A stretch of 64,000 nt of DNA from Candidatus Levyibacteriota bacterium (GCA_016214555.1 JACROF010000003.1:64930-128929); one strand, 5' to 3'; numbered from the stretch's first letter, positions 46,767 to 64,000 are shown. The notes: generated from the sequence alone by a model not told the origin. Translations and numbers: made by a program.

Positions 46767-48034
46767 GCGCTCTCAGAAGATACTCCCATTGCTACACTAT
46801 TTTTCTTAGGATAAGCTTTTAAACGTAGCATCAGAAGCGTCAGGAAAAAAATTAAAAAATAATAACCAATTACAAGCGATAGAGGCAACGTGGAAATTGT
46901 CACAACAGGAGATAAAGAGCCAAAAAACCTGATTATAGTAAAAAAGTATAACAAGAATGGCATAGCCAAAACCGCAATGAGGATCCCAAGCCAAGACGAC
47001 ACAAGCCCAATAATAGCTGCCATCGAGCCTATTATCATGACTGGTGGGACGATCCATAAGACTAAAACATTAACAAGAAGAGATAACACTCCTAGTGTAT
47101 GAAAATAGTACAAGAGAATAGGCATGGTTGTAATCTGTGCAGAAAAAGTGGTTGTAAAATCATCAAAAAGGATGCCTTTTAGTCTCTTAGGTTCTGGGAA
47201 AAGAGGCTTGAGAAGAAGTATCCCCAGAGTTGCTGCAAATGACAATTGAAATCCTATATCAAAAATTACTGAAGGAGTTATAAGAATCATTATACATCCT
47301 GTAAGATACATTGCGACAAACGCTGTTTTTTGCCTTCCAAGCATCATCCCCACAAAGCCAACAGAGGACATAATCGCTGCCCTTACGATAGAGGCTGAGA
47401 GTCCGGACAGGACTGCATAACCCCCTATCGCAAGTATGGTAAAGGCTAGGGCGAATTGTCTTCGCATGACTCTACCAAAAAGAGGCATAAGAAATCCCGC
47501 AAGAAGTGTCACATTCATACCGCTTGCGGCGATGACGTGCATAACGCCTGTTTTGACAAACGCATCTTGGTCTGACTTATCAAATCCTGGATTTATACCA
47601 AAGACAATTCCCATAAGTAACTTTGCTTGATCGTGAGGCAAAGCATGCGAAAAAACCACATCTACCCTAGACCTAATCCAGCCAGCAACCCAAAAAATCA
47701 CTCCTGTGTCATTGGAAATTTTCTTAATTATAGGAAAATACATTGAAGACACAACCCTTTTATCATCTAGCACCGATGTGTTAACTTTGCCAGATACCGA
47801 TATTAAATCTCCGTAACCATACCCACTAAAGCGTGGTAACGTAAGTGAAAGCTTTCTCCCCTCAGCCATAACACTAAAGCGTTCTGTCTTCCCTGAAATA
47901 ACAGCGCTTGAGAGAATACGAGTTGTAAATGAAAGCTCTTTTCCATCAGAAAAAGGCTGCACAAAAGCAGACTGAGCAATTCTTGCTACTACAACAATAG
48001 CTGTCAAAAAGTAACAAATGAGAACAATTTTCAT
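46763..48034 (-). CDS. comEC: ComEC/Rec2 membrane channel part (DUF4131 plus Competence domain)
   Basis: Polytopic membrane protein with the competence-domain block VKTGVMHVIAASGMNVTLLAGFLMPLFG. Confidence 0.8.
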   Translation of the reverse strand: MKIVLICYFLTAIVVVARIAQSAFVQPFSDGKELSFTTRILSSAVISGKTERFSVMAEGRKLSLTLPRFSGYGYGDLISVSGKVNTSVLDDKRVVSSMYFPIIKKISNDTGVIFWVAGWIRSRVDVVFSHALPHDQAKLLMGIVFGINPGFDKSDQDAFVKTGVMHVIAASGMNVTLLAGFLMPLFGRVMRRQFALAFTILAIGGYAVLSGLSASIVRAAIMSSVGFVGMMLGRQKTAFVAMYLTGCIMILITPSVIFDIGFQLSFAATLGILLLKPLFPEPKRLKGILFDDFTTTFSAQITTMPILLYYFHTLGVLSLLVNVLVLWIVPPVMIIGSMAAIIGLVSSWLGILIAVLAMPFLLYFFTIIRFFGSLSPVVTISTLPLSLVIGYYFLIFFLTLLMLRLKAYPKKNSVAMGVSSESA

Positions 48035-48036
48035 AG

Positions 48037-48765
48037 CTAAAGAGAGATCTGATTTTTAATTTTATCTAGCGTCTTTGAGGAAATAGACTTCTTGCTTACA
48101 AGTTCATCAATACTTGCGTAAGGACGATTGGAAATGATCTTTTGAGCCGTTACTCCCCCTATACCAGGAAGGCTCTCAAGTTGAGATTGCGATGCTGTAT
48201 TGACACTAATCATACCTGTCTGACTTCCCATAACGCTCTGATTACTTCCTGATGCAGATTCACCATGAAAAGGGATATAAATCTTCATCCCATCACTAAC
48301 TCTTGAGGCTAGATTGAGGCTTTTTGCTAACTCACTTTTGTCTACCTTGGCAGAGAGACCCCCTGCGGCAACAATAGCATCTTGCACACGAGCATCGCTT
48401 GAGAGATCATACACTCCAGGCTTGAGGACTGCGCCTTCGATATCAACCTTAATACCACTATCTGCATACGTTGGCGCTGGAGCACTATCACCTGAGGCTT
48501 TCTGAACAAGTATTTCTTCATGCTTGGGCTGTGATATCTGATACAAACCATATCCTAAGAATATCAAACCACCCACTCCAGCAACGATAAGTAAGAGATT
48601 ACTTCGAATAAATTGAGGCAATACATCCTCTTGTTGGTCCACAAGATTACTGTACTGCCAGAGGATGTACTTTGTAAAGCAAAGAAAAAGCCAGGCTCGC
48701 TTGAGCCTGGCTATAGAGTCATCCTTTCTCATCAATACAAAAAACAAGAGTGCCGAAAAAGACAA
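48037..48765 (-). CDS. comEA: ComEA-like DNA-binding competence protein (helix-hairpin-helix)
   Basis: C-terminal HhH pair VNTASQSQLESLPGIGGVTAQKIISNRPYASIDEL. N-terminal membrane anchor. Confidence 0.8.
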   Translation of the reverse strand: MSFSALLFFVLMRKDDSIARLKRAWLFLCFTKYILWQYSNLVDQQEDVLPQFIRSNLLLIVAGVGGLIFLGYGLYQISQPKHEEILVQKASGDSAPAPTYADSGIKVDIEGAVLKPGVYDLSSDARVQDAIVAAGGLSAKVDKSELAKSLNLASRVSDGMKIYIPFHGESASGSNQSVMGSQTGMISVNTASQSQLESLPGIGGVTAQKIISNRPYASIDELVSKKSISSKTLDKIKNQISL

Positions 48766-49307
48766 ATCCTAGCGCTATAACACACCAGGTCATAACAAGG
48801 TCTGCAATCGACTCTCCACGAAGGTACAAAGTCGAGATCATACCGTATTGAACAAGTGCCGGCAGAAAACCGACAAAAAGGCCAAGCTTGCCCAATATGC
48901 TATAGGCACCAACTAAAGTTGCTACAAAAGCGACAAAGCCTGCAGCAAATTCACCAGTCAGAAAATAGTCCAAGGATGCATCCACGTGACGTCCTCCTTT
49001 TTTAGGTCTAGACTCGATCCTCTTCCCCATCCATCATAATGATGAAAAAGAGCATCCCAACCTGAATACAAAAGAAAAATAGTCCTAGAACAGCGATGAG
49101 AACTATATCGCGTAATCCAAAATAAACCCAATGTGAAACGACATTGCCAAAGACCATTCCAAAGACAGCTCCCAGCACTACCCCATCTCTTTTTAAGATC
49201 AAGATGCTCATGCCAAGATAGCATAAAAAGGCAATGATGCCATTGCCTGTAGCTCCTTCAGGGAAAATGCCAAGCGTCCAATTGACGATCTGATTGATCG
49301 TATCCAC
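48719..49307 (-). other. Two overlapping small membrane-protein ORFs (49008..49307 and 48719..49030); possibly one gene of about 200 aa interrupted by a frameshift
   Basis: Both ORFs are hydrophobic (about 3 TM each), adjacent on the same strand in different frames, with a 23-nt overlap. Confidence 0.3.
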
Positions 49308-49434
49308 TTTGCCTCCATTGGGTTTTCAAATCTTCAAAGTGAAGACTTAAAATACATTGTTTAGGTGCTCGCTTGAGTAAGATCGCCTGATCCTACTCTG
49401 AGATGAGGAATTATAGCATAAGTGAAGCTAGGAG

Positions 49435-52008
49435 CTATACGGCAACGACGAAATTTAAAATTTTACCTGGGACATAGATTGCTTTCTTAATAGTTTTTCC
49501 TTCAAGATGCTTTTGAACCGAAAAATCTTCATGCGCGATACGCTCTACCTCTTCCTGACTTGCTTGAGGGTCGTTAAGAACAAAAGTGCCTCTTAATTTC
49601 CCATTGATCTGTACAGCAATCACCGTATCTCCACTTTCAATGAATTTCTGATCAAAAGCTGGCCAGACAGAAGTATGGATTGAGCCTTGTTCGCCTAGTC
49701 TGTGCCATAACTCCTCTGTTATATGTGGTGCAAAAGGAGCAAGAAGCTGCAATAGCACTTTAGCCTCAGTCAATGAAATCTCTTTTTGCTCTGAGAGGAA
49801 ATTGTAGTAGGTCATAATCTTAGCAATGGCTGTATTGTAGTGAAAACCTTCGATATCCTCTGTCACACCTTTAATAGCCTTGTGCATCTCGGATTTAGCA
49901 CTACTGTCAACCTCTTTGCTAATAATTGTTTGGCTTGATAACAAGACCCAAATTCTCTTCATGAAGCGAAACATACCTTCAATGCCACTATCCCGGAAAT
50001 CACCACCCATATTAAATGGTCCTAAAAACATCAAATATGTTCGAAGTGTGTCAGCTCCAAATTTCTTGATATATTCATCAGGCACGACTACATTGCCTTT
50101 TGACTTGCTCATCTTCGCACCATCTTTGATAATAAGTCCATGAGCAAAAAACCTTGGAAAAGGCTCGTCGAAGTCTACAAGCCCTAGGTCGTGAGAAACT
50201 TTAGTCAAAAATCGTGCATATAACAAATGCAAAACAGAGTGCTCTGCCCCACCCGTATAAATAGTTGGCGGAAGCCATAACTTACCAACTCCCTCATCCC
50301 ATGCATGATCATTATCACTCGTTGAAGTATAGCGATAAAAATACCAAGCGCTATCTAAGAAAGTATCAGATACATCTGTTTCTCTTTTTGCTTCTTTCCC
50401 ACACGATGGACAGTTAACTGTGTAAAACTCTGGATGCCTTCCAAGAGGCGATGTTGCCTCAGAATTCTCAGATGAAGCACCAATTGGCTTGTAATCCTCA
50501 ATATATGGCAACTCAATTGGCAAATTTTCATCAGGATACCAACCAGGCATTTGAGTAGATAGGGTCTGGTGTTGAACAGCTTGCAAGCTCTCCCTATTTA
50601 CTAAATACTTACTACTAACCCCTTCTTTTGAGGTAAACCATGATCTTCCCTCTTTGGCACAATGCTCACAATAAATCATCGGTATCGGCGGCCCCCAGTA
50701 TCTCTGCCGAGATATGAGCCAATCTCTCAAATGATAATTCGTTGACTCCGTTGCCAATCCTCTCTCTTGAAGATATGCGATGATCTTGTCTTTATCTTTA
50801 GGGGCAAGAAGACCATTCCACTCACCTGAATTAATAAGCTTTCCCTCGCCCGTATAGGCCTCCTTAGTAATATTTGCTGATTCGTGCTGGATGACCTGGA
50901 TAATAGGTAACTCATATTTACGGGCAAATTCGTAATCTCTCTGATCATGCCCGGGAACTGCCATAATTGCCCCTGTTCCATAAGACATCAGGACATAATC
51001 AGCAATCCAAACAGGCATCTGCTGATTATTGATTGGGTTGATGACATAGGCCCCACTAAAAACACCGCTCTTTTCTCTATCACTTAAATCTTTTTCTAGT
51101 GCGCGGATCTTTGCTTTTGCAACATAGTCTGATACTCCAGGATTGCTCATCCATTCCTTAACCAATGGATGCTCAGGCGAAACAACCATAAAAGTTGCGC
51201 CAAAAAGCGTATCTGGTCGAGTAGTGAAGACTGAAAGATCGTTATCGGTATCGGCTACTCGAAAAGTGATTTTTGCCCCCTGACTCTTTCCTATCCAGTT
51301 TCGCTGTGCCGTCTTTACCTTCTCAGTCCAGTCAATCTTGTCTAATCCCTCAAGAAGTTGCTCTGCATATTCTGTGATCCGAAACATCCATTGCTTGAGC
51401 TCCTTCTTTTCAACCTCAGCTCCACATCGCTCACACTGACCATCAATGACCTGCTCATCAGCCAGAACAGTCATGCACGAGGGACAAAAATTGACACCAA
51501 CGCTCTCCCTGTAAGCAAGACCAGACTTAAATAACTCAATAAAGATCCACTGTGTCCATCTATAATAATCTGTATCATATGTTTCTAAAATATGTGACCA
51601 GTCATAGCCACTCCCTAGTGATTTGACCTGATCATAAAATCTCTTCTCACTTTTTTTAGCCTGCTCCATAGGATGACTCCCAATTTTGAGAGCATAGTTC
51701 TCAGAATGAATTCCAAACCCATCAAGGCCAAATGGCTGGAAGACATCAAAGCCTTGCATTCTCTTAAAACGACCGTGGATATCGGCTCCGGTAAAAGCAT
51801 AAACATTTCCTACATGAAGACCTTCCGCTGAAGGATAAGGAAACATATGGAGGTTATAATATGGCCTTTTAGCAGAATGTAAATCTGGCTGATAAATCTT
51901 TTCCTTCAACCAAATCTCTTGCCACTTCTGCTCTATCCTTTGAGGAAAATACTTTGTATCCTCGCCTTGGACCTGATCCTTAGCGCTTAGCGCACTAGCT
52001 TTCTTCAT
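49435..52008 (-). CDS. leuS: Leucyl-tRNA synthetase
   Basis: 857 aa with the class I HIGH-region PYPSAEGLHVGNVYAFTGADIHGRF and a KMSKS-type MSKSKGNVV motif. Full length. Confidence 0.95.
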   Translation of the reverse strand: MKKASALSAKDQVQGEDTKYFPQRIEQKWQEIWLKEKIYQPDLHSAKRPYYNLHMFPYPSAEGLHVGNVYAFTGADIHGRFKRMQGFDVFQPFGLDGFGIHSENYALKIGSHPMEQAKKSEKRFYDQVKSLGSGYDWSHILETYDTDYYRWTQWIFIELFKSGLAYRESVGVNFCPSCMTVLADEQVIDGQCERCGAEVEKKELKQWMFRITEYAEQLLEGLDKIDWTEKVKTAQRNWIGKSQGAKITFRVADTDNDLSVFTTRPDTLFGATFMVVSPEHPLVKEWMSNPGVSDYVAKAKIRALEKDLSDREKSGVFSGAYVINPINNQQMPVWIADYVLMSYGTGAIMAVPGHDQRDYEFARKYELPIIQVIQHESANITKEAYTGEGKLINSGEWNGLLAPKDKDKIIAYLQERGLATESTNYHLRDWLISRQRYWGPPIPMIYCEHCAKEGRSWFTSKEGVSSKYLVNRESLQAVQHQTLSTQMPGWYPDENLPIELPYIEDYKPIGASSENSEATSPLGRHPEFYTVNCPSCGKEAKRETDVSDTFLDSAWYFYRYTSTSDNDHAWDEGVGKLWLPPTIYTGGAEHSVLHLLYARFLTKVSHDLGLVDFDEPFPRFFAHGLIIKDGAKMSKSKGNVVVPDEYIKKFGADTLRTYLMFLGPFNMGGDFRDSGIEGMFRFMKRIWVLLSSQTIISKEVDSSAKSEMHKAIKGVTEDIEGFHYNTAIAKIMTYYNFLSEQKEISLTEAKVLLQLLAPFAPHITEELWHRLGEQGSIHTSVWPAFDQKFIESGDTVIAVQINGKLRGTFVLNDPQASQEEVERIAHEDFSVQKHLEGKTIKKAIYVPGKILNFVVAV

Positions 52009-52148
52009 AGCTTAAAGTATAGCATAGCACTCCGATACTTAGCATGAAGTCATAGCCCCCCCGCCTCCATCCCCTAACTACTAGCTACTAGCTACTAAAT
52101 CTAACTCCTAGATACCAACTCCTGAATTATTTGCTATAGTTAATCTAT

Positions 52149-52643
52149 ATGTCACTTACAAGACAAGCTGTCCTTATTGTAGGAATAGGCATTCTCATCT
52201 GGATCTGGCAATTACTGTCCCTAGAGAGCCTCACTGTCCCCATTATTGGACTTATGGTGCTGGCATACCTTGTAGCTTCAAAGCTTACGCAAAAAAATCG
52301 CTCTGGAGAAAAAAGGGCAATCGATCACTATCTTGTCCTTCTGCTCTCGAGTATTGTTGTTCTCCTTGTCTTCTCAACGGGAGGCCTGGACTCTTCAATT
52401 TTTTTTCTTTTGTATTTTGCTTTTTTTGCTATTGGATTTGCTCTCATGCCAGATAGTGTTTTTATTTTTATGGCCGTTGTCGTTTTGCTACTCCTGCCCC
52501 AAGGACTCAAAGAAAATATGTCTGAAAATCTGATAAAAATTGGCTCACTCATTTTGATTGCCCCTCTTGCCTATTTTTTTTCTGAAAAAACAAAAGCTGA
52601 GCTCGCAGATATCATTACTAAATCCGAGGAGTTTAAGGAATAA
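52149..52643 (+). CDS. Hypothetical polytopic membrane protein
   Basis: 164 aa, 4-5 TM helices. It is the first gene of the surface-protein cluster. Confidence 0.45.
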   Translation: MSLTRQAVLIVGIGILIWIWQLLSLESLTVPIIGLMVLAYLVASKLTQKNRSGEKRAIDHYLVLLLSSIVVLLVFSTGGLDSSIFFLLYFAFFAIGFALMPDSVFIFMAVVVLLLLPQGLKENMSENLIKIGSLILIAPLAYFFSEKTKAELADIITKSEEFKE

Positions 52644-52649
52644 TCTCGT

Positions 52650-53402
52650 ATGAAACTTGCCTATCTTAGCCTATCAATCCTCTTGGCCTTCTTTTTTTTA
52701 ACTGCTCAAAAAGCTATCAATCTAGAACAAATTAGTGCATTTACCATGAGTAATGCGAATTGGATTATCGATTTTGCCAATCTCAATATGACATCCGGAA
52801 AACCAACAGGGCCAAATTACAAAGTCAGTAACACCGTTGGCCAGATTGCACCAGGTCTGTACTCAGGAACCAATTTTAAGGTTCGAGCAGGCTTCCAATA
52901 TGTTTATTCCATCATCCCCTTTAGCTTTACCATAAGCACGCTTGAAATTAACTTTGGCACACTTATTCCAACCAATCCCGTGACAAGAACAAACGTCCTA
53001 ACCCTTAGCAATGGCTCGGCAAATGGCTACTCAGTCCTTGCCTATGAAAATCACGCACTACTGATCCCGGGAAGCGGCAGAATGATCCCAGACACAAGCT
53101 GTGATGCCGGAACATGCACGCAAATAACAGCAGCTGCATGGACGAGTTCGCTTGCGTATGGATTTGGATATCGATGCGACAACCTCAGCGGTACAGACTG
53201 TTCAACAGACTTCTCAACAGGTACTTTTTATAAGCAATTTGCCAATGACTCTGATGGCGAAACTGCCCAAGCTGTTATGAGAGGGGTGAATGTCGGAAGG
53301 TCAAAACAAGTGCAAATTACCTACAAAGCAAATATTTCAGCAACCCAACCTCCTGGAGAATATACCAATCAAATAATTTACTTGGCAATACCAACTTTTT
53401 AA
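52650..53402 (+). CDS. Secreted WxL-like small surface protein (250 aa)
   Basis: Signal peptide. The C-terminus TQPPGEYTNQIIYLAIPTF parallels the C-termini of the 480-aa paralogs (TPPGDYW.IMTYTASV.F). Confidence 0.55.
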   Translation: MKLAYLSLSILLAFFFLTAQKAINLEQISAFTMSNANWIIDFANLNMTSGKPTGPNYKVSNTVGQIAPGLYSGTNFKVRAGFQYVYSIIPFSFTISTLEINFGTLIPTNPVTRTNVLTLSNGSANGYSVLAYENHALLIPGSGRMIPDTSCDAGTCTQITAAAWTSSLAYGFGYRCDNLSGTDCSTDFSTGTFYKQFANDSDGETAQAVMRGVNVGRSKQVQITYKANISATQPPGEYTNQIIYLAIPTF

Positions 53403-53404
53403 TT

Positions 53405-54469
53405 ATGAATAAACATATAGAGTATAAAGTAGCAAGAATTAAGCAAAAGGCAGTAATAATTAGCTTGCTATCTACTTTATTCTGCATACTATCTACTAAT
53501 CAAATAGATGCTGCAAGCTTTGAGCTTTCCGTCTCGCCGCCGATCTTTGAGATAGAATTAACTCCTCCAGCCGTTGCCGATGTGAATGAACAAATTATTC
53601 TTGAAAACACCGGTGATGATGGTATGAATTTAGAAATTGATTTCAGACTATTCAGACCTCAAGACAAGAACGGCGATATTGTCTATCTTAAAAAGGGAGA
53701 CCTCTATGGGGATGATCCTTTAATCCTTAAAAGAATTCGCATTATGGATGACGATAAAGAGATTCATGAACTTTATCTCTCTCCCCATACCAAGAAAAAA
53801 CTTAACCTCATCATAACTATTCCCAAAGATGAGCCACCCTCTGATTATTACTTCAGTATTCTTTTCTCATCAAAGGAGGATGAAAAACAAAATAACGGCT
53901 CGTATACAGAGTCAATTGGCGGTGTTGCGGTCAATACTCTCCTTTCTATCGGCCCTAAAGACTCAACGAAAGGCTCTATCGAAGAATTTTCGACGGATTT
54001 TTTTAGGACTGAAGGCCCGGTGCCTTTTGTCGTGACGATCCACAACAAGAGCAAACATTTTATCTCCCCTCAAGCAAGTATAGCTATCAGAAACATGTTT
54101 GGACAAACGATAGGAAAGATTGAGCTTTTACCCGTAAATATCCTTTCAGAATCAAGTAGATCTCTTCCCAGTAAAGAACAATTTGTTATCAACGCTCAAG
54201 AAACTGACGAGGATAAAAAAACAAAAAAACAAAATGCGACCATACTTAAGCTCATCTCACACTCTCTTACTCCAGTTGCAGTCTGGCCTGAGTCTTTTCT
54301 CCTTGGCCCCTACTCTGCCACCCTCACAGTTGCTCTTTCAGAAAATGGCCCTTTATATGTGAAGACTATTCATTTTTTCGCATTTCCACTTCATATTCTT
54401 ATTGGATTTATCATCGCTATTCTTCTTCTCTTAACAATTAAGCATCGACTCGCGTACAAAAAAGTTTGA
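53405..54469 (+). CDS. DUF916/DUF3324-like cell-surface protein with a C-terminal TM anchor
   Basis: Signal peptide. FELSVSPPIFEIELTPPA start. C-terminal TM LHILIGFIIAILLLLTI followed by a basic tail KHRLAYKKV. Confidence 0.55.
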   Translation: MNKHIEYKVARIKQKAVIISLLSTLFCILSTNQIDAASFELSVSPPIFEIELTPPAVADVNEQIILENTGDDGMNLEIDFRLFRPQDKNGDIVYLKKGDLYGDDPLILKRIRIMDDDKEIHELYLSPHTKKKLNLIITIPKDEPPSDYYFSILFSSKEDEKQNNGSYTESIGGVAVNTLLSIGPKDSTKGSIEEFSTDFFRTEGPVPFVVTIHNKSKHFISPQASIAIRNMFGQTIGKIELLPVNILSESSRSLPSKEQFVINAQETDEDKKTKKQNATILKLISHSLTPVAVWPESFLLGPYSATLTVALSENGPLYVKTIHFFAFPLHILIGFIIAILLLLTIKHRLAYKKV

Positions 54470-54546
54470 AGCCATAAACAATCAGAACTGTCACAATTTG
54501 ACCTATTCTAGCCCTTGACAACCTGACATTTTTCACACAATACTGG

Positions 54547-55992
54547 ATGTACATGAGAAAATACTTTCTGCTCTTATTCTCGTTGTTTTCGTTGGCTCTT
54601 TTTTTTGTGGTCGCAACACAAAAAACCGAAGCTGCTTCCTTACTCAATGCTTCAGCAAGTGCTACAACCTCACGACCCTCCCCATCATCCCCCCTCTTTA
54701 TCCCAGATCCCATGAGCATAGGAACCTCATCAGCAAGAGTCTATGACAATCTCTCAACTTTTCTCTCATCTGATTCTGCAAAATTCTTTAACAACGGCGT
54801 TTTTAGCGAGATATTAACTGTCGCTACAACCTCAGCTGATAGACAAACGCTTTTTTTCACAGGCGCAGCCACTGCTGCCCACAATAGAACTTCAGTTATT
54901 ACTGCTCCCATCACTGCGATGCATCAATTTGTGTTTACTACCCAAACCGCTATCCCTGTTAACGGAACTATCGAGATCACGTATCCAAACTCAGGATCCC
55001 TGGATACTGTCCAGGCATCGCCTTCGGCAAATACCTGGATGTTTAATGGGCTATCAACAAGCAATATTAAGCAAAAAATTAGCCAAGGCACTGCTGGATG
55101 CAACTGGACCAAGTCTGGAGATACCAATGGCTCAGGCGGGCAGACTCCAAAGTTAGTCTGTACAGTAACTGGAGCAATTATCCCAGCAGGAGCAACAGTG
55201 TGGGTTTGGGTTGGCTGCTCTACTTATACCAATGGCACCTCATGCGCAACACAAAATCCCAACCTTATTAACCCAACAGCTTTAACAGGACGAGGTATCG
55301 CTGATGTAAAAAATATCAATGTGATTACGTATGATGTATCTGGAGGCAACATTCTTGACTCATCGTCGCTGAAAATGGGGACCATTGATTCGGTCTTTGT
55401 CGTTGCTCACGTTGATCCTACATTCACCTTCCGTATTGATGGCGTGGCATCAGGAGTAGATATCAACACGTTATGCTCAGGCTATACGAGCGCAACATAT
55501 TTCACCCAAAACCAAAGTGGTGTTAACTTCCCCACAACAGGAACTGATGTCAACTTAGGCACAGTCAGTAGCGGAGGACCAAATTATGCAGCGCAAAAAA
55601 TGAGCATTGTCTCCAACACCAGCGTTGGGTATGTAATCACTGCTACGTCTTCAGGATTCCTAGTAAACCCCTCGAGTGGAAAATACATCGTAAATACCCA
55701 AGGCAACGTCACAGCGAACAATACACCTGCACCTGTTGTGATGCCTGGCACGGGAGGGTTTGGTATCAATGCATGCGATAGTAGCAGCAGAGTTAACACG
55801 ACCACCTGGGGTACTACAGCACCGAAATTTGCCAATCCGTCACAAAACTTCTACTACACACTAGTAAACTATGCTGGAGCTCTCAGCGGCACGGACAATA
55901 TCTATGTAGTATACGGCGCTCAAGCGCAGGCAACGACACCTCCTGGAGACTACTGGGAAATTATGACATATACTGCCTCTGTAGCGTTTTAA
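54547..55992 (+). CDS. Secreted cell-surface protein (481 aa), paralog of 37618..39060; WxL-like C-terminus
   Basis: Signal peptide MRKYFLLLFSLFSLALFFVVATQKTEA. Conserved blocks shared with the paralog as listed there. Confidence 0.75.
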   Translation: MYMRKYFLLLFSLFSLALFFVVATQKTEAASLLNASASATTSRPSPSSPLFIPDPMSIGTSSARVYDNLSTFLSSDSAKFFNNGVFSEILTVATTSADRQTLFFTGAATAAHNRTSVITAPITAMHQFVFTTQTAIPVNGTIEITYPNSGSLDTVQASPSANTWMFNGLSTSNIKQKISQGTAGCNWTKSGDTNGSGGQTPKLVCTVTGAIIPAGATVWVWVGCSTYTNGTSCATQNPNLINPTALTGRGIADVKNINVITYDVSGGNILDSSSLKMGTIDSVFVVAHVDPTFTFRIDGVASGVDINTLCSGYTSATYFTQNQSGVNFPTTGTDVNLGTVSSGGPNYAAQKMSIVSNTSVGYVITATSSGFLVNPSSGKYIVNTQGNVTANNTPAPVVMPGTGGFGINACDSSSRVNTTTWGTTAPKFANPSQNFYYTLVNYAGALSGTDNIYVVYGAQAQATTPPGDYWEIMTYTASVAF

Positions 55993-56041
55993 AAAGACAC
56001 TTTACAGCACAATGGTAGTATGGTAGCGTTGAAGTATAGCT

Positions 56042-57019
56042 ATGATAATTAAAACTGCCCAAAAAGGATCATTGGTTGCAAAAATACAAACAGGAGCGAT
56101 TGTTACCTCTCTTGCTCTTTCCGTTTTGGGAACAGCAACCTACACAGGCCTTGTTGATCAAATATCAGCACAGGCTAGCACAGCTAGATCCATAACTATT
56201 ACTCCTCCATCTCTCCCCTTTACTGTTAATCCTGGAGAAAAAAAGGAAGGTGTTTTGGGACTAATTAATGAGTCAAATGACGACATTGTCTTTAGCGTTG
56301 TCATCTACGATATGATCGTTGAGGACAATCAAGGAACACCAGAATTTCTTCCCGCTGGAACAATCTCAAGTAACAAATACGCTGCGAGTTCATGGATAGG
56401 CGTTGACTCACCTAGTCTTCTCGTAAAGGCGCACTCACGAGGCACTCTTCACTACTATGTACAAGTCCCAGCTGATGCAGGTCCTGGCGGTCATTATGCA
56501 GGCATCGTGTATCACCCTGAGAGAGTTGAGATCGCAAAAGGCTCAGGAGCAGCAATCAATCAACAATTAGCAACGCTTGTTTACTTTGACGTAGCAGGAC
56601 CTGTTAAGGAAAGTGCTCAGGTAAAACAGTTTAGCGCTCCAGGATTCTCAGAGTATGGACCCGTAAAGCTTACTACAGAAATCAGCAACTTCGGAGACAC
56701 TCACATCAAACCAACTGGAACTCTGACCGTAACTGACATGCTTGGAAAAGTTGTAGCTTCAAAGAAGATTCAGGAGCAAAATATTTTTCCAGGAGGAATC
56801 TCTCGCCTATTTGAAGAATCAGTTGGTAAGAAATGGATGCTTGGAAAATATGAGGCAAAGCTAATGGCTACTTATGGTCGAAACAACAACCTTCCTCTTG
56901 TTGCCTCAGTTGCTTTCTGGGTATTCCCATGGAAGATAGCACTTCTCATCATCACACTTATCGTTGCAGCAATCCTTGGCTATCTGTACGTAAAGAAAAA
57001 CAAGCACACCCCGCAGTAG
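56042..57019 (+). CDS. DUF916/DUF3324-like cell-surface protein with a C-terminal TM anchor
   Basis: Signal/anchor at the N-terminus, SITITPPSLPFTVNPGEKKEGVLGLINESNDDIVF, and a C-terminal TM WKIALLIITLIVAAILGYLYV plus a KKNKH tail. Confidence 0.6.
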   Translation: MIIKTAQKGSLVAKIQTGAIVTSLALSVLGTATYTGLVDQISAQASTARSITITPPSLPFTVNPGEKKEGVLGLINESNDDIVFSVVIYDMIVEDNQGTPEFLPAGTISSNKYAASSWIGVDSPSLLVKAHSRGTLHYYVQVPADAGPGGHYAGIVYHPERVEIAKGSGAAINQQLATLVYFDVAGPVKESAQVKQFSAPGFSEYGPVKLTTEISNFGDTHIKPTGTLTVTDMLGKVVASKKIQEQNIFPGGISRLFEESVGKKWMLGKYEAKLMATYGRNNNLPLVASVAFWVFPWKIALLIITLIVAAILGYLYVKKNKHTPQ

Positions 57020-57141
57020 ATCCAGGGAGTAGATAGTAGGCTCTAGAAGATACTAACGAGATAGCGATTTTCTCATATCTCTTTTACTGTAATATAGCTA
57101 CTACCTCTACTTACTACCCCCTACATCCTATCTCCTACCTC

Positions 57142-58068
57142 CTAATACCCCACAAACCACGAATGGTGCAGCTTTTTTCTCTCAGGATGAAAGAATAGAT
57201 ACATTTTGTTGTTGTAAACAAAAGTAAACTTCTCCGGCCAAAGCTTGAGGAGTAAATAAACAATAAGAGGTATGAGAGGCAATATGATCCATAATGGGCC
57301 AAGCCCAAAGCCTGTGAGTACGTTCCATAGCCATCTGAAGAAATCTTTGAGCCATTGAAGCAATTGACCAAGCCATGATAACGCAACAAGCTTTACGGTA
57401 TTGGAAGGATTTTCAGACGATTTCCCATCGTACACAGCGGTCGCGTAGAGCTCGTAGACGCCTGCTTTTAAATTCTTGAGGGTTAACTCATAATATCCAT
57501 CTTTATCAGCCACAACCGTGTACGTGGTCCCATCCTGCAGATGAATAGTGACTGTAGCACCCGGCATCGTGTACCCAAAAACAACAGCATTCCCTCCTGC
57601 TGTAATCTGCGATCTCTGAAGCCCAATTGTTGGTGGAAGGAAAATATTCTTCTTATCAATATTGTTATTGGCTGCAGGAATACTCAGGCATGTAGTTGAC
57701 TCTCCTATGTTCTTGTAATCGATATGCTGTAAACAAAAACTAGAAAAATTACGATTAATAAGAATATCTTTAAAAGCCCAAAAGCCATTTTGATCTGCGA
57801 CGGTGCTTCGGTAAAAAACACCATTGGAGGTAAGAATAATTGAGGCAAATGGCGAAGCGAATCCAGAGAGGTTAAGGTAAAACTCACCAATACGGGCAGA
57901 GACTTTAACAGGGTCCTCAGTCTCAGATATCGTTGTGGTCGCCAACACAGGACAATTTTGGAATAGCAAAAACAACATTGCTATGACAAAAAACAATTTG
58001 ACTATACTAAAACTCTTAATGCTCATACACCACAAACGAGAGAGCCTTTTAAAAACAGGCTCTCTCAC
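57142..58068 (-). CDS. Secreted/anchored hypothetical protein with an Ig-like (carboxypeptidase-regulatory-like) domain and a C-terminal TM
   Basis: N-terminal hydrophobic signal VKLFFVIAMLFLLFQNCPVLA. TVTIHLQDGTTYTVVADKDGYYELTLKNLKAGVYELYATAV. C-terminal TM LGPLWIILPLIPLIVYLLL. Confidence 0.5.
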   Translation of the reverse strand: MREPVFKRLSRLWCMSIKSFSIVKLFFVIAMLFLLFQNCPVLATTTISETEDPVKVSARIGEFYLNLSGFASPFASIILTSNGVFYRSTVADQNGFWAFKDILINRNFSSFCLQHIDYKNIGESTTCLSIPAANNNIDKKNIFLPPTIGLQRSQITAGGNAVVFGYTMPGATVTIHLQDGTTYTVVADKDGYYELTLKNLKAGVYELYATAVYDGKSSENPSNTVKLVALSWLGQLLQWLKDFFRWLWNVLTGFGLGPLWIILPLIPLIVYLLLKLWPEKFTFVYNNKMYLFFHPERKKLHHSWFVGY

Positions 58069-59113
58069 TAGTATAGTAGTATTAATTTTAAAAATGAGAG
58101 ACTATCAATCTATATATAAATATATTAATAGATATCAATAAATTATCTTACAAAGCTTCGCAAGAAAATCGATAACTAGTGGCACAAAGCAAAGTAAATC
58201 TCATATACAAGAGCAACATGGTAAGGAAAAGGACTAATTACGGTAGTGGAAAATGATAAGGCTATATTATTTGTGCCTAAAAAATAAAAATAGATTGAAT
58301 TATCAATCTAAATATAACTATTATTTTTCTATCAGTCTAATGACATGATTGACAAAACAACCCGAAAGCGAAATAGACATGAGGCTAATTATTGAAAAGT
58401 CATAACTTATAAAAAAGGTAAGGACCAATTTTTTACCCCTTTCACACAAGTAATGGGGAAGAAAAAATTAACAGTAGCTAAAAATCTTCTTGGAAATATA
58501 TCTAACTATATCACCTATCAAAAATACCGACGTAGGAATATTATGATATCTTTAGATATATTCACTGTTTTTTACCGAGAACGACATAGTCGAAAAAAGA
58601 AAGAAATATCGTTGTGAAATAATAAAAACTTATCAATTTTCTTATTATTTTTGTATCTTTATTAAGATATCTAAAAATATCTAAATATATCAATACTATT
58701 TTACTCTAGGGTATTGACAGCCTCAATCACACTTGCGAACATATTAATAGATGTATTTATTAATATATGTAAGATTTTCATAAAAGAGATAGGTGATAAT
58801 CGGTATAATCTATATAATCTCAAGGCTAGAAACCAAATCACAATCTTTAAAAAATCTTACAAAAATAGAATTCATCAAGAAGGAACAAGCTATGAAAAAT
58901 CATAAAGTTGGGCACGATCTTATTTTCACAAGTAGAAAGTCGAATTCATCCATGAAAACGGCTGTGAAATATTCCTATGAGACTCACTCCTCTACTGGGG
59001 AGATGGATAGAATCATGATAATCCTTTCAGCAGTTGCACTGAGCTTCTTTGTTAGTCAATTCTTTTTGATTATTGCAAGATAGCGAATGTATCTAAACCA
59101 ATATGGACTTATC

Positions 59114-62100
59114 TGCCCAGTTCAAATCGTTTCTTAGTAAACAGAAGAAGCCTGCTTCAAAGATAACGATTAAAAATTATATAGCTGACCTCAATCAGTT
59201 TGTTCGTTGGTACAAATCTCACTACAACAAGGATTTCCATCCATCGCAATTCACTTCTGAAGTCGTTGAGATCTACAAGACAACTCAAAGCGGTCTTTCT
59301 CCTGAATACAAAAATGCCACCTCCATCTCAGCTCGATCGCTCAAACGACATCTATCAACTCTTCGTAAATTTGCCAGCTTCCTAGTAGTAAAGGGCTATA
59401 TCTCAAGCTCGCCATTAGCTATTAACCATTCGCCATTAGCAAAATCTGACCCGTTCCATCTCAAAGCCTTCAAAGAGCATCTCTATCTCTCCAAATCATC
59501 GGATCTTACTATAAAAAACTATATCAATGACATCAAGCAGCTTTGTCACTGGGCTGGAGAAATAGATGATATCTCTTCATTGATTAATAGCGCCTCACTA
59601 AAAAACTACCGAGAAAATCTTATTGCTAACTCTGGCCTCTCTGAGGCCTCAATACATCGCAAGCTTTCCTCTCTTCGCCGCTATGCGAGATTTATGCAAG
59701 AGAAGAACTTTATCAATGCAAAAGACTTATCTGAATACTTAGACCAGACTCTTACTAGCAAATTGTTAGCAGGAGCAAGATCACTGGAAGAGGCAAAAGA
59801 AAGATTGTCGCCAGGGCAAGATCTAAACAGAACTCAGCAATCAACCATACCTGCTGCTAATCATGACTTGGACACTTCCGCTCTGACCTCAAGTGCTCAG
59901 CTCCCTGAGAAGCCAGTATCTAGTATTTCGTATCAAGTATCTAGCAAAGATACTAATAAATCTCAGCTAAATACTAAATACCAAATACCAAATACTAGAT
60001 ATTCCCGTTTTGCTCCTTTCAGGCTAAGCCAAAAAATTCTCGCCCCTCTTGTTCTCGGATTTGATAATTCAGTCGTATCACTATCGGCAAAGGCACTTGA
60101 AAAAGCTCAATACCTTTCCTGGATAGCCAGAGGAAAGCAGATATTCTCATCTAGTGCTAAAAATGGTTTAGCTGATGCTATTAAAATAAAATCTATCGTT
60201 CCAGGCAATGTCCTTCCCAGCTTACTTCAAAATAACAGTGGATCTTTGCTAAATACTAAATACCAAACTTCAAATGCTAAATACCAAATACTAAATACTA
60301 AATACTCCCCCCTCCATCCTTCCCACCCATCATTTTCTAGTCTTCCGTTCCACCTCCGAGCTCTCGGTCATGCCCGACATACTAGACCAAACTGGTATAA
60401 AAAATATCATTCCTATTCAGTGGTGCATTATTTCCACTTTGCTGCACTTATCATCATGATGTCGGCTCTTGGATTTGGCTTGTACCGCTCGTTTATTGAA
60501 AATCCACAAAAAGAGCAGGCTCTTGCTGCTCCGCCAACAGCACCGCCAAGGCTCCTCTCGTTTCAAGGTCGGCTGACAGACTCAAACGACAACCCTATCA
60601 CAACCGCAAAAGACTTGCGGTTTACGGTTTATAATGACGCCTCTGCTACAGGCGCGGCCCTCCTCTGGCAAGAGACTCAACAGCTCACCCCAGACCAGGA
60701 TGGCATATTTTCTATACTCTTGGGGTCAAGTACTGCCATTCCTTCAACAGTATTTACCGACAACTCAACTCTCTATCTTGGCATCACTGTCCAATCTGAT
60801 AGCGAGCTTACTCCTCGTCAGCAAATTGCGACAGTTGCCTTTGCAGCAAATGCCGAAACCATCCAAGGCCTTCTTCCAAGCACAGGGGCAGGCGCTGGTC
60901 AAACAAATGTAGTCCTTGCTCTTGACTCAAGCGGCAATTTAACAATTGGCGGGACTGCTAACCCTACTTTTTCAGCAACGGGTGGATCATTTACGCTCTC
61001 TGGAAAAACATTAGCGCTCAACACAACAGCTGGCTCAAATGGCAATGTCACTCTTACCCCCGACGGAGTCGGCATCATCCAGCTCAATGCGCCAGTCCAA
61101 AACACAAACACAAATTATCGAAACAACATACCAACTGCTAAAGGTGCTGTTGAGATCGATGATATGTTTGCTGTCTTAGCTACATCCTCAGGTCAATCAG
61201 CATTCACTCTCAACCAAGACAGCACTGGTCCGCTGATTAGCGCTTCAACAAGTGGAGTTGCTAAATTTACCATTGCCAATGATGGCTCTGGCTACTTTGC
61301 AGGATCTGTCGGCATCGGTGATGTTACACCCGATGCTCCTCTTGATGTCGTTGGTGATGTCTATATCAGCGATGGGCTTAGTCTCTATGAAACAGCAGTC
61401 TCAGATGGCACAGTTGAAGCGACCAAATTCTGCACAGGAGATGGTGAGACTAATTGTGTTACAGACTTCTCTGCTCTCGTGTCTGGAAGTAGTTATTGGC
61501 TCAGAAATCTTGGAGCACTCTCTCCTGCAAATGTGACTGATGATTTGCTTCTAGGGGCAAATGCAACCACAAGTGCAATTGTAAAACTTCCAGGCCTTAC
61601 CAACAATAATGCATTCTTTAATCTAGGAACTGGCAATGTTGGAATAGGTACCACAGCACCTGTTGCCAAATTAGACATACGAGGCTCTGGCATCTCCTCC
61701 CCTGTTGCTTCTATCTCAGGACAGACAAATGCTGTAGCTGCATTAGTCGTTGACAACAAAGTTGGAGATCTTTTTGCAGCTTCAAGTTCCGGATTAACAA
61801 GGTTTGTGATCACCCAGGCCGGAAATGTCGGCATCGGCCTTGGGACTATCATGCCCGTACAAGCACTAGACGTTTCAGGCAATGGCATGTTCCGCAATTC
61901 AGGAGATCTTGCCTCTACCTTCAGAGGTATTCATGTTCTTCCTACAACGACAACATCTGGTGGAAGCAACCAAGTAGTGAGAGGGTACTCAACCTCAAAT
62001 GGCTTTGCGCTTGAAGGGGGGAATACAGCCTTTGGCGCAACGCCTGCAACCATTGTCCTAAACGGACCGGGTGGCTACATATCATTTCAAACAAACACAA

Positions 62101-64000
62101 CAAATAGAAATGCTATTGGTGCATCTGAAAAAATGCGTATCACTAGCGATGGCAATATAGGTATTGGCACTACCGCTCCCCTTGCAACACTTCATGTTGC
62201 TAGTATTTCGGCAAAAGCGCTTGTGATCCTAGATCAAAACAACTCAACCCAGGATATTTTCACAGCTTCAGCTGCAGGAGTTACTAAATTTGTGATTAAT
62301 AATGGAGGCAATGTTGGAATTCTTGATAACAGTCCTGATGCGCCACTTGATGTCGTCGGAGATGTATACATAAGTGATGGTTTGAGTCTTTTTGAGACAG
62401 CAGTTAGTGATGGCACAGTAGAAGCGACTCAGTTCTGCACTGGTGATGGAGAAACTAACTGTGTAACAGATTTCTCAGCTCTCGTATCTGGAAGTAGCTA
62501 TTGGCAATTAAACAATAAAGTCCTCTCCCCAGGCAACTCTACCCATGATCTAGCTATTGGCGGCACAGCTACAAGCAGTGCCCTCTTCCAAGTATTTGCA
62601 GTAGGTACGAATGCAGGAACTGCATCTAGTTCAGGTCAACTGACCTTCAGGGGTACTACAGATCCTAAGATTAATATTCTTAATGGAGAGGCATTTGGGA
62701 TTAGCACCTCTGCGGGTGGAGATGCTGGGCTTACTGAGAGATTGACGATCACTAATGATGGTAACGTAGGGATTGGAAGTACCTTGCCTACACAAAAACT
62801 TTTTGTTGATGGAAACATTGGTATCACAGCAGGAGCAGCAAACAGCTTTATTGGAAGTAGTACATTTAATGGTTACAACCCAGCTGACAATGGAGGTAGG
62901 GCTGGAATAAATGCAGCAGCTAGTTTTTATCTCAATCTAGACTCAAATAATGATGGGACGACAGCTTTTTTCCAAATTGCAAAAGACTCTAACTCGCTCT
63001 CAGGCGGAACGCAGCTTTTCACAGTTAATGAGTCTGGAAATGTCGGGATCGGCACAACAACTAATCATGGATTTGTTCACATAAATGGAGGCACACAGGG
63101 AGGAAATGCAGCACTTGTTATCAATCAAACAGGTGCTCAGACAAATGACATCTTCACCGCATCATCATCTGGCGCCACCCGATTTAGTCTTGCAGGCGAT
63201 GGATCAGCCACCCACTCTGCTGTGACAAGCGGTGGATATGCCTATAGACTTACTGCCAACAATCTCACAACCGGAACAGGTATGTATCTTTCCTCAACTA
63301 GCACTGGACTTAGCACAGGTGGACTTCTGGCTCTAGACTGGTCACCAGGGTCTTCAACTGTCGCCACCGGCGATCTTTTGAGTCTCAATGTTGGAGCCAA
63401 TGGAACGTTGGGAAATATCTTTAATGTTAAAGATAATGGATCTAGTGTCTTCTCTGTCTCACAGAGTCAAATCACAGCTGCCCTCCCTACTTCATTTACT
63501 GCAGCTGGAGATACCTCATTTGCCTATGACATCAATTTTACCAATCCAACTGCTTCATACATCAAGAGTGCGGCTCCACTCTATCTCCAGGCTGGAGAAA
63601 CGTTTAACTCATCAGATCTGACATTACAAACATATAATGCAGGCAATGTCATCATTGACTCACAAGCATTTGTTACCAATTACGCAGCCACTGTCTCTGG
63701 CCAGCTGGTTGTCGGCACATCAACAGCTCCTGCCAATATCGGCAATTTCTACCTGACCAACTCAGCTGAATTTGGTAAGTCTCTGGCTATTCTCAATCAG
63801 ACTGAGTCAAACGATATCTTAACAGGTAGCAGTAGCGGTGTATTTAAATTCGTTTTTAACCAAAATGGCAACCTAGGCATCGGCACTTCTCTTCCTGCTG
63901 CTCCTCTGGATGTAGTTGGAGATATATATGGTTCATCTGGTATCTCACTGTATAACACAGCTGTTAGTGATGACACAGTTGAGGCAGTAAGATTTTGCAC
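59114..64000 (+). CDS. Giant partial protein (over 1628 codons, continues beyond the window) with two N-terminal integrase-type SAM-like (core-binding) domains, a single TM helix, and a long repetitive extracellular region
   Basis: Manual translation from ATG 59114 is open to the window end; it is absent from the ORF track because it has no stop. Core-binding-like copies: ITIKNYIADLNQFVRWY...SISARSLKRHLSTLRKFASFLVVKGYISSSP and LTIKNYINDIKQLCHWAGE...ASIHRKLSSLRRYARFMQEKNFI. TM helix VVHYFHFAALIIMMSALGFGLY with a basic N-flank. Downstream modules repeat NVGIGTT.P...L.V and three copies of PDAPLDVVGDVYISDGLSL[YF]ETAVSDGTVEAT.FCTGDGETNCVTDFSALVSGSSYW. Confidence 0.7.
59967..60001 (+). repeat. Heptanucleotide tandem repeat (T/C)AAATAC, about 5 units, inside the giant CDS
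   Basis: taaatac taaatac caaatac caaatac tagatat. Encodes NTKYQIPNTRYS. Confidence 0.7.
60240..60295 (+). repeat. Heptanucleotide tandem repeat (T/C)AAATAC, about 8 units (two degenerate), inside the giant CDS
   Basis: taaatac taaatac caaactt caaatgc taaatac caaatac taaatac taaatac. Encodes LNTKYQTSNAKYQILNTKYS. Confidence 0.7.

Follow-up and report, generated by a model that had tools for sequence, protein, structure and literature searches.

What can a bacterium do with a protein that has two recombinase-type domains at one end, a fibre of more than a thousand residues at the other and a single membrane-spanning helix between them? The question is raised by a giant gene at the end of a 64,000-nucleotide (nt) stretch of DNA from Candidatus Levyibacteriota bacterium (GCA_016214555.1 JACROF010000003.1:64930-128929), which we call the window and whose positions are counted from its first letter. 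The first-pass annotation of the window suggested a membrane-tethered DNA-binding protein or regulator, and our reading of the sequence likewise suggests that the protein could be one. We are highly confident of the descriptive part of the answer: the domains, the topology signals, the homology of the fibre, the conservation, the synteny and an array of repeats in the leader that is specific to this gene. For the whole, we tentatively propose an attachment fibre whose pair of core-binding (CB) domains binds DNA, likely at the gene's own leader array, with feedback on expression as the outcome.

The start of the gene had been placed at 59114, in a frame that is full of stops and was rejected. 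The long open reading frame (ORF) is that of 59097; its first ATG lies at 59103 (protein start MDLSAQFKSFLSKQKKPASKITIKNYIADLNQFVRW), it is open to 63998, and 1632 codons of it are visible in the window. As annotated, the gene runs on beyond the window: P0152, a database protein identical to the window protein (from a 50%-representative library), has 2385 amino acids (aa) and extends the window protein by 753 aa. P0152 is itself cut, and the retrieval of the full-length gene, which had been recommended, therefore reached 2385 aa with the C-terminus of the family still missing. The parts of the gene on which the argument rests are listed here, with the predicted local distance difference test (pLDDT) score of the AlphaFold2 model where it applies.

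59103..64000, plus strand: giant gene, cut by the window end; 1632 aa visible
59109..59420, plus strand: CB domain 1 (CB1; aa 3-106), a SAM-like four-helix bundle; Pfam, NCBIfam, pLDDT ~95
59460..59702, plus strand: CB domain 2 (CB2; aa 120-200), which repeats the helix-B and helix-D motifs of CB1; PF02899, pLDDT 90-96
60012..60131, plus strand: conserved cytoplasmic helix (aa 304-343), which begins with the family motif YSxFPPxRLxQK; a single long helix, pLDDT 80-88
60348..60500, plus strand: juxtamembrane motif (RHTRPNWYKKYHSY) and single transmembrane (TM) helix (core aa 440-462, nt 60420-60488), N-in
60552..60824, plus strand: membrane-proximal beta-sandwich (aa about 484-574; LSFQGRLTD...LLWQE...PDQDGIFS...LYLGITV); pLDDT 82-92
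60825..64000, plus strand: fibre shaft of (S)E(K/R)(M/L)(R/T)IT.(D/N)GN(V/I)GIGT..P...L.V beta-helix modules and Cys-containing modules of ~55 aa

The fusion of these parts is real and not an assembly chimera, because an independent Logan assembly (SRR12113407; contig L081) spans the junction between the CB domains, the TM helix and the fibre. This contig matches window positions 46150-61617 at 99.99% identity, with one mismatch and one 108-nt indel elsewhere than at the junction, and stops 2.5 kb into the giant gene. The same fusion of CB domains and fibre is carried by 31 of 31 complete homologous ORFs that were scanned.

The two integrase-type core-binding repeats that had been reported at the N-terminus were recovered with Pfam, AlphaFold2 and Foldseek. 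Pfam marks two Phage_int_SAM stretches, at about aa 3-106 and aa 120-198 of the window protein, and the profile check that had been proposed for this region was positive with three models above their gathering cutoffs: PF02899 (E 1.3e-17, 64 bits against a cutoff of 22.3), PF13495 and PF13102. In CB2, PF02899 is aligned at aa 120-198 over profile positions 1-79 of 83. The NCBIfam models for XerC and XerD align only at positions 3-97 of about 295, that is, over their N-terminal third, and score 74 bits against a cutoff of 335. In an AlphaFold2 model of the N-terminal part of the window protein, built on 36 family sequences, both CB domains form four-helix bundles with pLDDT above 90 (up to 98). 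A Foldseek search of the PDB ranked highest the CB domains of XerA, Brujita Int and VchIntI, along with 3nrw, a structure of a CB domain only. When CB1 was aligned by hhalign with residues 8-102 of a manually entered Escherichia coli XerD sequence, TIKNYIADL stood opposite NTLNAYRRDL in helix B and SLKRHLSTLRKF opposite SSARLLSAVRRL in helix D. To judge from these sequence matches, the CB pair is derived from a Xer-type tyrosine recombinase. One PDB entry, 9i5v_14 ('RaiA'), was considered as a hint of ribosome binding by CB domains; it is a 400-aa Porphyromonas protein whose N-terminus matches the CB fold, and it was discarded as uninformative on the CB domains because just 34 of its residues are modelled, and these sit at the hpf position.

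A catalytic integrase domain had been described as absent, and no Pfam match to Phage_integrase (PF00589) was obtained in the 1632 visible residues or in the 31 complete homologues. With neither a catalytic domain nor an R-K-H-R-H/W-Y site, the protein is incapable of DNA recombination, which makes 'site-specific integrase' a wrong name in the databases. The part of the recombinase that was retained is nevertheless well conserved at particular positions. Residues T22, K24, N25, Y26, D29, F33, W36, S79 and R82 of CB1 are invariant or at least 90% conserved, and K138, N139, Y140, D143, R186, S189 and S190 of CB2 are invariant in 36 sequences; across the cytoplasmic part, conservation peaks on helices B and D of each CB copy, which in CB2 adds N185, K187 and R192. 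The CB pair has a median net charge of +7 in the family. In complexes of recombinases with DNA, helices B and D lie in the major groove. The retention of the helix-B and helix-D residues, the family-specific K-N and N-R-K signatures and the basic character of the region lead us to the view that the CB pair most likely binds duplex DNA.

Between the CB pair and the membrane, the cytoplasmic part (291-434 aa in the family, median net charge +20.5) continues with a helix, a disordered linker, the long conserved helix, a second disordered stretch and the juxtamembrane motif. In the region of the conserved helix, S301, P305, R307 and K311 are invariant in 18 sequences. A hydrophobic stretch at aa 310-330 was considered as a second TM segment and rejected: it is moderately polar, contains a conserved Asp and is modelled within one long soluble helix, and a topology with two TM segments was also dismissed because the K/R-rich juxtamembrane segment would then lie outside. 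The family motif RxTRPxWYKxYHSY leads straight into the TM helix (VVHYFHFAALIIMMSALGFGLY, aa 440-462), which is the hydrophobicity maximum of the window protein and is modelled as one confident helix (pLDDT 91-96). The 30 residues before it contain five K+R and no D+E, the 30 residues after it three of each. The single positive-inside helix that had been proposed is thus supported by both the charge bias and the model, and these predict that the protein is a single-pass membrane protein of type II (N-in, C-out).

The disordered cytoplasmic linker also contains two runs of a heptamer at the DNA level.

59968..60001, plus strand: heptamer run 1, (Y)AAATAC, encoding LNTKYQIPNTRY
60249..60307, plus strand: heptamer run 2, (Y)AAATAC, encoding LNTKYQTSNAKYQILNTKY

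The (Y)AAATAC pattern has 10 matches in the window against 0.45 expected; nine are in the giant gene and eight within the two runs, which encode NTKYQIPNTKY-like peptides. Changes in the number of heptamer units that are not divisible by three would break the frame between the CB domains and the TM helix. Phase variation by this route was considered and found no support, the runs in contig L081 being identical.

Outside the membrane, the ectodomain begins with a beta-sandwich of ~90 residues with many near-invariant columns in the family, and continues as a repetitive shaft rich in G (12.4%), T (11.9%), A (10.7%), S (10.7%) and N (8.2%). It contains five GN[VI]G[IL]G motifs, and its ~55-aa module (PDAPLDVVGD...FCTGDGETNC) was counted in three copies by eye and in two by exact-string search. 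The annotated length of more than 1400 aa does not apply to the window, inside which about 1170 residues of the ectodomain fall, and is true of the gene as extended by the 2385-aa P0152. In a phmmer search of the PDB, three stretches of the ectodomain matched Bd2133 (8OND), a fibre of the mosaic adhesive trimer (MAT) family of Bdellovibrio bacteriovorus, at E 5e-12, and the Bd1334 structures 8OML and 8ON4 were matched at E 1.4e-5 and E 6e-4; the family profile also matches 8OND and the phi29 gp12 autochaperone 3GQH. The first guess of a 'beta-solenoid-like' region was essentially right, since the ectodomain matches solved MAT beta-helix fibres. An intramolecular-chaperone (IMC) domain is present in 24 of the 31 complete family members (Peptidase_G2 in 15, Peptidase_S74 in nine); the window copy and P0152 stop before this region. 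In the family the IMC-like segment is followed by about 450 further conserved residues, and all complete ORFs finish with ...SFTVGI...FNW(L/W)I(V/I)N. By analogy with the solved fibres, the shaft is probably a trimeric beta-helix of the tail-fibre or MAT type.

The gene belongs to a large family. With the N-terminal 499 aa as query, 38 relatives were found, all in Patescibacteria and labelled 'site-specific integrase, partial' or 'XerD'; nearly all deposited relatives end at contig edges, as expected where short-read assemblies break in giant repetitive genes. When one genome per species was scanned, at least 145 genomes had a relative, and a query with the TM and beta-sandwich segment returned 280 clusters at E<=1e-30 among 1.84 billion representatives, with proteins of up to 6048 aa. 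Relatives in Firmicutes, which had been envisaged, did not materialize: nearly all relatives with informative taxonomy are Patescibacteria, chiefly of the Microgenomates group and mostly Levybacteria. A few metagenome-assembled genomes with other labels are probably binning errors, and titles reading 'uncultured Gammaproteobacteria', from a bulk submission of such genomes, were taken as mislabels. For comparison of the surroundings, 80 homologous loci were fetched from different genomes (L001-L080), almost all of them Levybacteria. The complete ORFs in these loci measure 1346 to 3854 aa, further ones exceed 3900 aa, and the closest relatives exceed 2500 and 3900 aa; each of the 31 that were scanned with Pfam is uninterrupted and has both CB domains and the conserved C-terminus, at a mutual identity of only 30-50% between family proteins.

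The position of the gene is conserved as well. Leucyl-tRNA synthetase (LeuRS), ComEA, ComEC, a metallo-beta-lactamase (MBL)-fold protein, a cluster of secreted proteins, the fibre gene and a membrane protein with tetratricopeptide repeats (TPR) recur together, each in 21-67 loci. LeuRS, ComEA, ComEC and the MBL-fold protein are on the minus strand; on the plus strand follow a small polytopic membrane protein, a secreted protein of 250 aa and one or more C-terminally anchored proteins of ~330 aa, then an immunoglobulin (Ig)-like protein on the minus strand and then the giant gene. Directly downstream of the giant gene, in 31 loci, lies the polytopic membrane protein with TPR repeats (~700 aa). 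The giant gene is thus a chromosomal gene of the lineage and not a phage gene. PADLOC models for defence systems gave no matches.

In other Microgenomates the same architecture is distributed over two genes. A profile of the CB pair found 616 proteins, many of which are stand-alone proteins of 155-200 aa that contain CB1 and only helices A-B of CB2. All six of the small CB proteins that were looked up sit directly upstream of a larger gene, which in four of the six is giant (>2600 aa, one of 7082 aa), and the four downstream genes whose N-terminus was read all begin with helices C-D of CB2, followed by a TM helix and the same beta-sandwich.

L184/L185: small CB gene 8001-8483, fibre gene from 8621 onward
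L186: small CB gene 8001-8480, fibre gene from 9183 onward
L187: small CB gene 8001-8522, fibre gene from 8519 onward
L188: small CB gene 8001-8570, fibre gene from 8572 onward
L189 and L191: further split loci

The split point within CB2 is identical, and the junctions are of four types: an overlap of 4 nt, gaps of 1-2 nt, gaps of 132-138 nt and a gap that holds an ORF with an NYN domain. Two of the six loci adjoin LeuRS-ComEA-ComEC and a third adjoins ComEA-ComEC. Half of CB2 would probably not be stable by itself; most simply, the small protein would dock on the N-terminus of the fibre protein and complete CB2. The split forms argue that the physical linkage of the CB domains to the base of the fibre is itself under selection.

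A candidate for the DNA that such a protein might bind lies in its own leader. The kilobase upstream of the gene (58069-59102) had been described as AT-rich and non-coding; its GC content is indeed low (0.28), but it holds a leader array and a called ORF of 63 aa.

58796..58829, plus strand: leader array, ATAAT-cgG-TATAAT-cta-TATAAT in 9-bp phased units, then CTCAAGGCTAG; sequence ATAATcgGTATAATctaTATAATctcaaggctag
58892..59083, plus strand: small ORF (63 aa) whose C-terminal helix is hydrophobic, located between leader array and giant gene; called on contig L081

The core of the array, ATAATCSGTATAAT, occurs once in the window. Of 80 homologous loci, 50 contain the exact core, each of them a single time and in every case on the plus strand and upstream of the giant gene; with two mismatches or fewer, the array is present in 76 of 81 loci, the remainder having mostly cut upstream sequence, and 21 other matches are scattered over 1.3 Mb of related DNA. 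This 1.3 Mb showed no further copy of the array, which is the only conserved direct-repeat element that was found there. Three phased 9-bp units are present in 65 of 77 loci, the ATAA, GTATAAT and GTATAAT positions carry about 2 bits of information although the proteins share only 30-50% identity, and the consensus of the downstream flank in the family is ATAATnnGTATAATCcGTATAAT cTCGagGCTAaa. The array also stands upstream of the homologue in L001-L080, L185, L186, L188, L189 and L191, followed by CTCGAGGCTA; among the six split loci it is thus recognizable in five, and the sixth (L187) has a degenerate version with a 10-bp period. A TTGACA-N16-19-TAnnnT promoter precedes the array in 46 of 77 loci, and in most loci with a promoter the array starts 22-34 nt past the -10 box, within the first ~45 nt downstream of it; in more distant lineages, the promoter TTGACA-N17-TATTATAG directly abuts the array. 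Being downstream of the -10 box, the array therefore lies in the initially transcribed region and is not the promoter itself.

Other explanations of the leader were tried. The array as a general promoter type or the mark of a regulon was ruled out because each locus in the 1.3 Mb has it a single time. When metagenomes were scanned for the triple unit, 80 loci came up, and 33 of these lie upstream of a family gene; the other matches were mostly 9-mer microsatellites, contigs too short to include a downstream gene (some of which still bear the downstream motif of the family) or, where inspected, loci with unrelated genes, often at a GC content of 0.48-0.60. A riboswitch or other structured RNA was likewise ruled out: Rfam gave no match at E<=1 in the AT-rich kilobase, and the leader RNA showed no stable fold, folding no better than its shuffles (z +1.05).

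Several further observations concern the same region. In one subfamily the array is annotated as the N-terminus of the protein (MYNSYNPEA = ATGTATAATtcaTATAATcctgaagct). The 63-aa ORF is missing where the array sits 40-90 nt from the ATG, and the upstream DNA of L185 and L187, read by eye, has apparently comparable short hydrophobic ORFs before the small CB gene. The octamer TTTTCACA and its complement show a strong enrichment near the leader: of 296 occurrences in 1.3 Mb, about 150 lie within 700 nt of the array. In 68 of 77 loci the octamer stands about 164 nt upstream of the array end, where its distribution has a sharp peak, and 18-100 nt downstream of it; it is found in the window at 58924-58931, about 105 nt downstream of the array end, and may be the site of a second regulator. 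Upstream of the array, the AT-rich region also has a motif of ~19 nt, AAATATATCTAA(n)TATATCA, which is present three to four times with its orientation alternating (window 58494-58513, 58544-58562 and 58664-58692). AAATATATCA was found in 22 loci, and in most of them it recurs 106-156 nt before the end of the array.

How these parts might work together can be outlined as follows. The TM helix would act as a signal anchor, and the fibre would be exported and would trimerise outside the cell. Levybacteria-type bacteria are presumed to be epibiotic, and for an organism that lives on other cells the fibre could serve in attachment to, or recognition of, a cell surface. If the fibre is a trimer, six CB domains would be brought together at the inner face of the membrane. 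Two similar CB domains in tandem would suit direct repeats, and the best candidate target would be the 9-bp-phased array in the gene's own leader, which occupies the classical position of an operator immediately downstream of the -10 box. A CB pair bound to the array would keep the gene at the membrane, limit repeated initiation on a gene of more than 7 kb, or do both, and the result would be feedback control of a very costly gene by a membrane-tethered regulator, with a logic like that of ToxR or CadC. In the split lineages, the small piece (CB1 and helices A-B of CB2) would dock on the N-terminus of the fibre protein (helices C-D) to give the same assembly. A more elaborate version, which we regard as rather unlikely, is a device that couples fibre and genome: the CB pair would bind the array in cis, the gene would stay at the membrane, and the occupancy, mechanical state or assembly state of the fibre would determine how strongly it is expressed, with two polypeptides sharing the task in the sister lineages.

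Several points weigh against this proposal. The link between array and CB domains is circumstantial, because any cis element specific to the gene would co-occur with it, and binding of the one by the other is accordingly put forward here as a conjecture. The perfect -10 hexamers in the initially transcribed region would look the same if they served sigma-70-dependent pausing or the loading of an antitermination factor, with no part for the CB domains. In a true recombinase the CB domain binds DNA jointly with the catalytic domain, the two forming a clamp, and isolated CB domains may bind weakly. The trimeric state is taken from the homology with MAT fibres and from the IMC domains; a monomer prediction of aa 465-849 resolved the first beta-sandwich only and left the shaft at low confidence, and a Foldseek search with the ectodomain model against viral models gave no significant match. 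The attachment role, finally, leans on the presumed epibiotic lifestyle and on the analogy with MAT fibres.

The most direct competitor, which we consider fairly improbable, takes the CB domains for a protein-protein module, used in clustering of fibres, docking in the cytoplasm or quality control of export, and the array for an independent transcription signal of a gene of 7 to >20 kb. Sequences resembling the -10 box cause sigma-70-dependent pauses close to promoters, as at lambda PR', and long operons often need dedicated factors of the NusG type; the array consists of consensus -10 hexamers placed after a real -10 box, and a sigma-dependent pause or the loading of an antitermination factor there would aid a very long gene. 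The split CB2 forms also show that a CB domain can dock two polypeptides, and some of the residues conserved in the family belong to the structural core of the fold. If the fold alone mattered, however, the invariant K24, N25, R82, K138, N139, N185, R186 and K187, which are on the helices that enter the major groove, would drift freely, and the net positive charge would not be expected to persist as it does. In another rival reading the pair binds DNA somewhere other than the leader, or in addition to it, either as a tether between nucleoid and membrane or as a ToxR-like regulator of several genes that responds to contact with a host. We judge this unlikely: it draws on the same domain and topology evidence, on the strongly basic cytoplasmic part and on the ComEA/ComEC and surface-protein genes that adjoin the gene in most of the fetched loci, but the 1.3 Mb of related DNA contained neither a second array nor another conserved candidate site, and the adjacency of ComEA/ComEC to LeuRS is common in bacteria and, here, on the opposite strand.

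Two explanations that would remove the problem altogether fare worse. A viral origin, in which the protein would be the spike of a phage, prophage or membrane-containing virus and its internal domain would hold the genome, is highly improbable; the shaft modules and chaperone domains are indeed of phage type and a DNA-binding tail would suit an enveloped virion, yet the gene occupies one chromosomal locus beside LeuRS in most comparable loci across the whole class, with shared flanking clusters, a scan of 2.9 million viral contigs gave just two weak CB-only matches, and no capsid, terminase or integrase gene was identified among the ORFs scanned at 46-58 kb. That the gene is an artefact or a remnant, either an assembly chimera or a decaying integrase pseudogene read into the next gene, could have been suspected from the database label 'site-specific integrase, partial' and from the many copies cut at contig ends, but is scarcely credible in view of the independent read set across the junction, the 31 uninterrupted ORFs with both CB domains and the many invariant cytoplasmic residues. 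We retain, as a tentative reading, the attachment fibre with a DNA-binding CB pair and feedback at its own leader.

Some features of the neighbouring genes deserve mention. At 52149-57019 on the plus strand of the window are five consecutive ORFs that have no Pfam match at E<=0.001: a polytopic membrane protein, secreted proteins of 250 aa and 481 aa that both end in a PPG(E/D)Y...-type sequence, and two proteins of ~330-350 aa with a signal peptide and a C-terminal anchor, one of which weakly matches the WxL-interacting protein family PF06030 (E 0.07). The Ig-like protein follows at 57142-58068 on the minus strand. Synteny of the cluster at 52149-58068 with the giant gene extends over 44-67 loci, and the cluster may encode a separate surface appendage or a partner of the fibre. 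The indel between the window and contig L081 falls here, at ~52580: the window is without 108 nt (36 codons, in frame) that are present at L081 6431-6541, and the gene of the small polytopic membrane protein accordingly encodes 164 aa in the window and 200 aa in L081, through either strain variation or an assembly difference. At 45879-48765 on the minus strand, ComEA, ComEC (Competence domain) and a separate ORF of the MBL fold adjoin LeuRS; ComEC is seemingly split into two ORFs in the window and in many homologous loci (cluster 9 in 21). The TPR membrane protein, whose position is beyond the window end, is exemplified by L020 14664-16760 and L042 14444-16615; its TPR repeats are C-terminal, Pfam gave no match to O-antigen ligase models, and a role as a glycosyltransferase or in assembly of the Thr/Ser-rich fibre is conceivable. 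In P0038, a distant member of the family with two short CB-like segments, a TM helix and a fibre, the fibre region contains an intein splicing domain (PF14890).

The giant gene is among the largest genes of genomes of roughly 0.6-1.6 Mb, and its size together with its conserved locus in at least 145 species genomes makes it likely to be central to the biology of these bacteria. Candidate-phyla bacteria are mostly uncultured, and the family may bear on the question of how they hold and sense their hosts. Relabelling of the 'site-specific integrase, partial' entries matters in any case for counts of mobile elements in these genomes. If the CB domains bind DNA, no surface fibre before this one would have had a direct connection with the chromosome, and the protein would be a clear case of reuse of half an integrase; if coupling of fibre and genome were also true, transmembrane signalling or autoregulation would gain a new class and integrase domains a new fate. 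The leader array, being strictly conserved, offers a directly testable DNA target, and the split CB2 forms are a natural experiment in domain complementation.

The architecture had been called very unusual, and full-text literature searches returned no description of the family; its modules are each known from other systems, and their combination, the leader array and the split CB2 arrangement appear to be undescribed. The regulators ToxR, CadC and TcpP bind DNA through an N-terminal module in the cytoplasm, cross the membrane with one TM helix, carry an extracytoplasmic domain and signal without a phosphorelay. The fibre family shares their topology with a single N-in TM helix; in its cytoplasmic part, however, Pfam gives the CB domains only and no winged helix of the OmpR type was found. 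ToxR-type proteins thus combine a winged-helix fold with small outer sensors and a demonstrated regulatory function, whereas the fibre family combines the CB fold with a fibre of >1000 aa, and its regulatory role is hypothetical. With phage tail fibres and tailspikes (the S74 domain of endosialidase; Peptidase_G2 of phi29 gp12, 3GQH) the family shares IMC domains and a beta-helix shaft, but the phage proteins sit on a virion and the Levybacteria fibre is anchored in the cell membrane. With XerC, XerD and the phage recombinases it shares the CB fold and the signatures T-x3-Y-x2-D-L (helix B) and R-x2-S-x2-R (helix D); unlike them, it has no catalytic domain, and its CB domain stands in two tandem copies that are linked through a membrane anchor to an extracellular fibre.

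MrpR (YopR), the master repressor of the SPbeta prophage of Bacillus subtilis, is derived from a tyrosine recombinase, no longer recombines and binds a repeated element (PMC10516654), and it thus provides a precedent for reuse of the fold as a repressor on repeated elements. MrpR keeps the two-domain recombinase fold, is soluble and phage-encoded, and its DNA binding is proven, whereas the fibre family has the CB half only, doubled and anchored in the membrane, with DNA binding presumed from its conserved residues. For the extracellular part, the closest relatives are Bd2133 and Bd1334, trimeric beta-helix fibres on the surface of Bdellovibrio that are used in prey recognition (PMC10769870). 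The two families share homologous GN(V/I)GIGT beta-helix modules (8OND, 8OML), include members with and without an S74-type chaperone and have an invariant cell-proximal N-terminus followed by a long modular shaft; both are cellular and not viral, and Bdellovibrio, too, is a bacterium that lives at the expense of others. The MAT proteins, however, have a secreted N-terminal domain that presumably binds an element of the surface, and their description includes neither a TM helix nor a cytoplasmic part nor CB domains (PMC10769870). They measure about 1000 aa, whereas the members of the Levybacteria family range from 1346 to >7000 aa and are anchored by a TM helix, with a beta-sandwich of their own at the base of the fibre and a conserved C-terminal region of their own at its far end.

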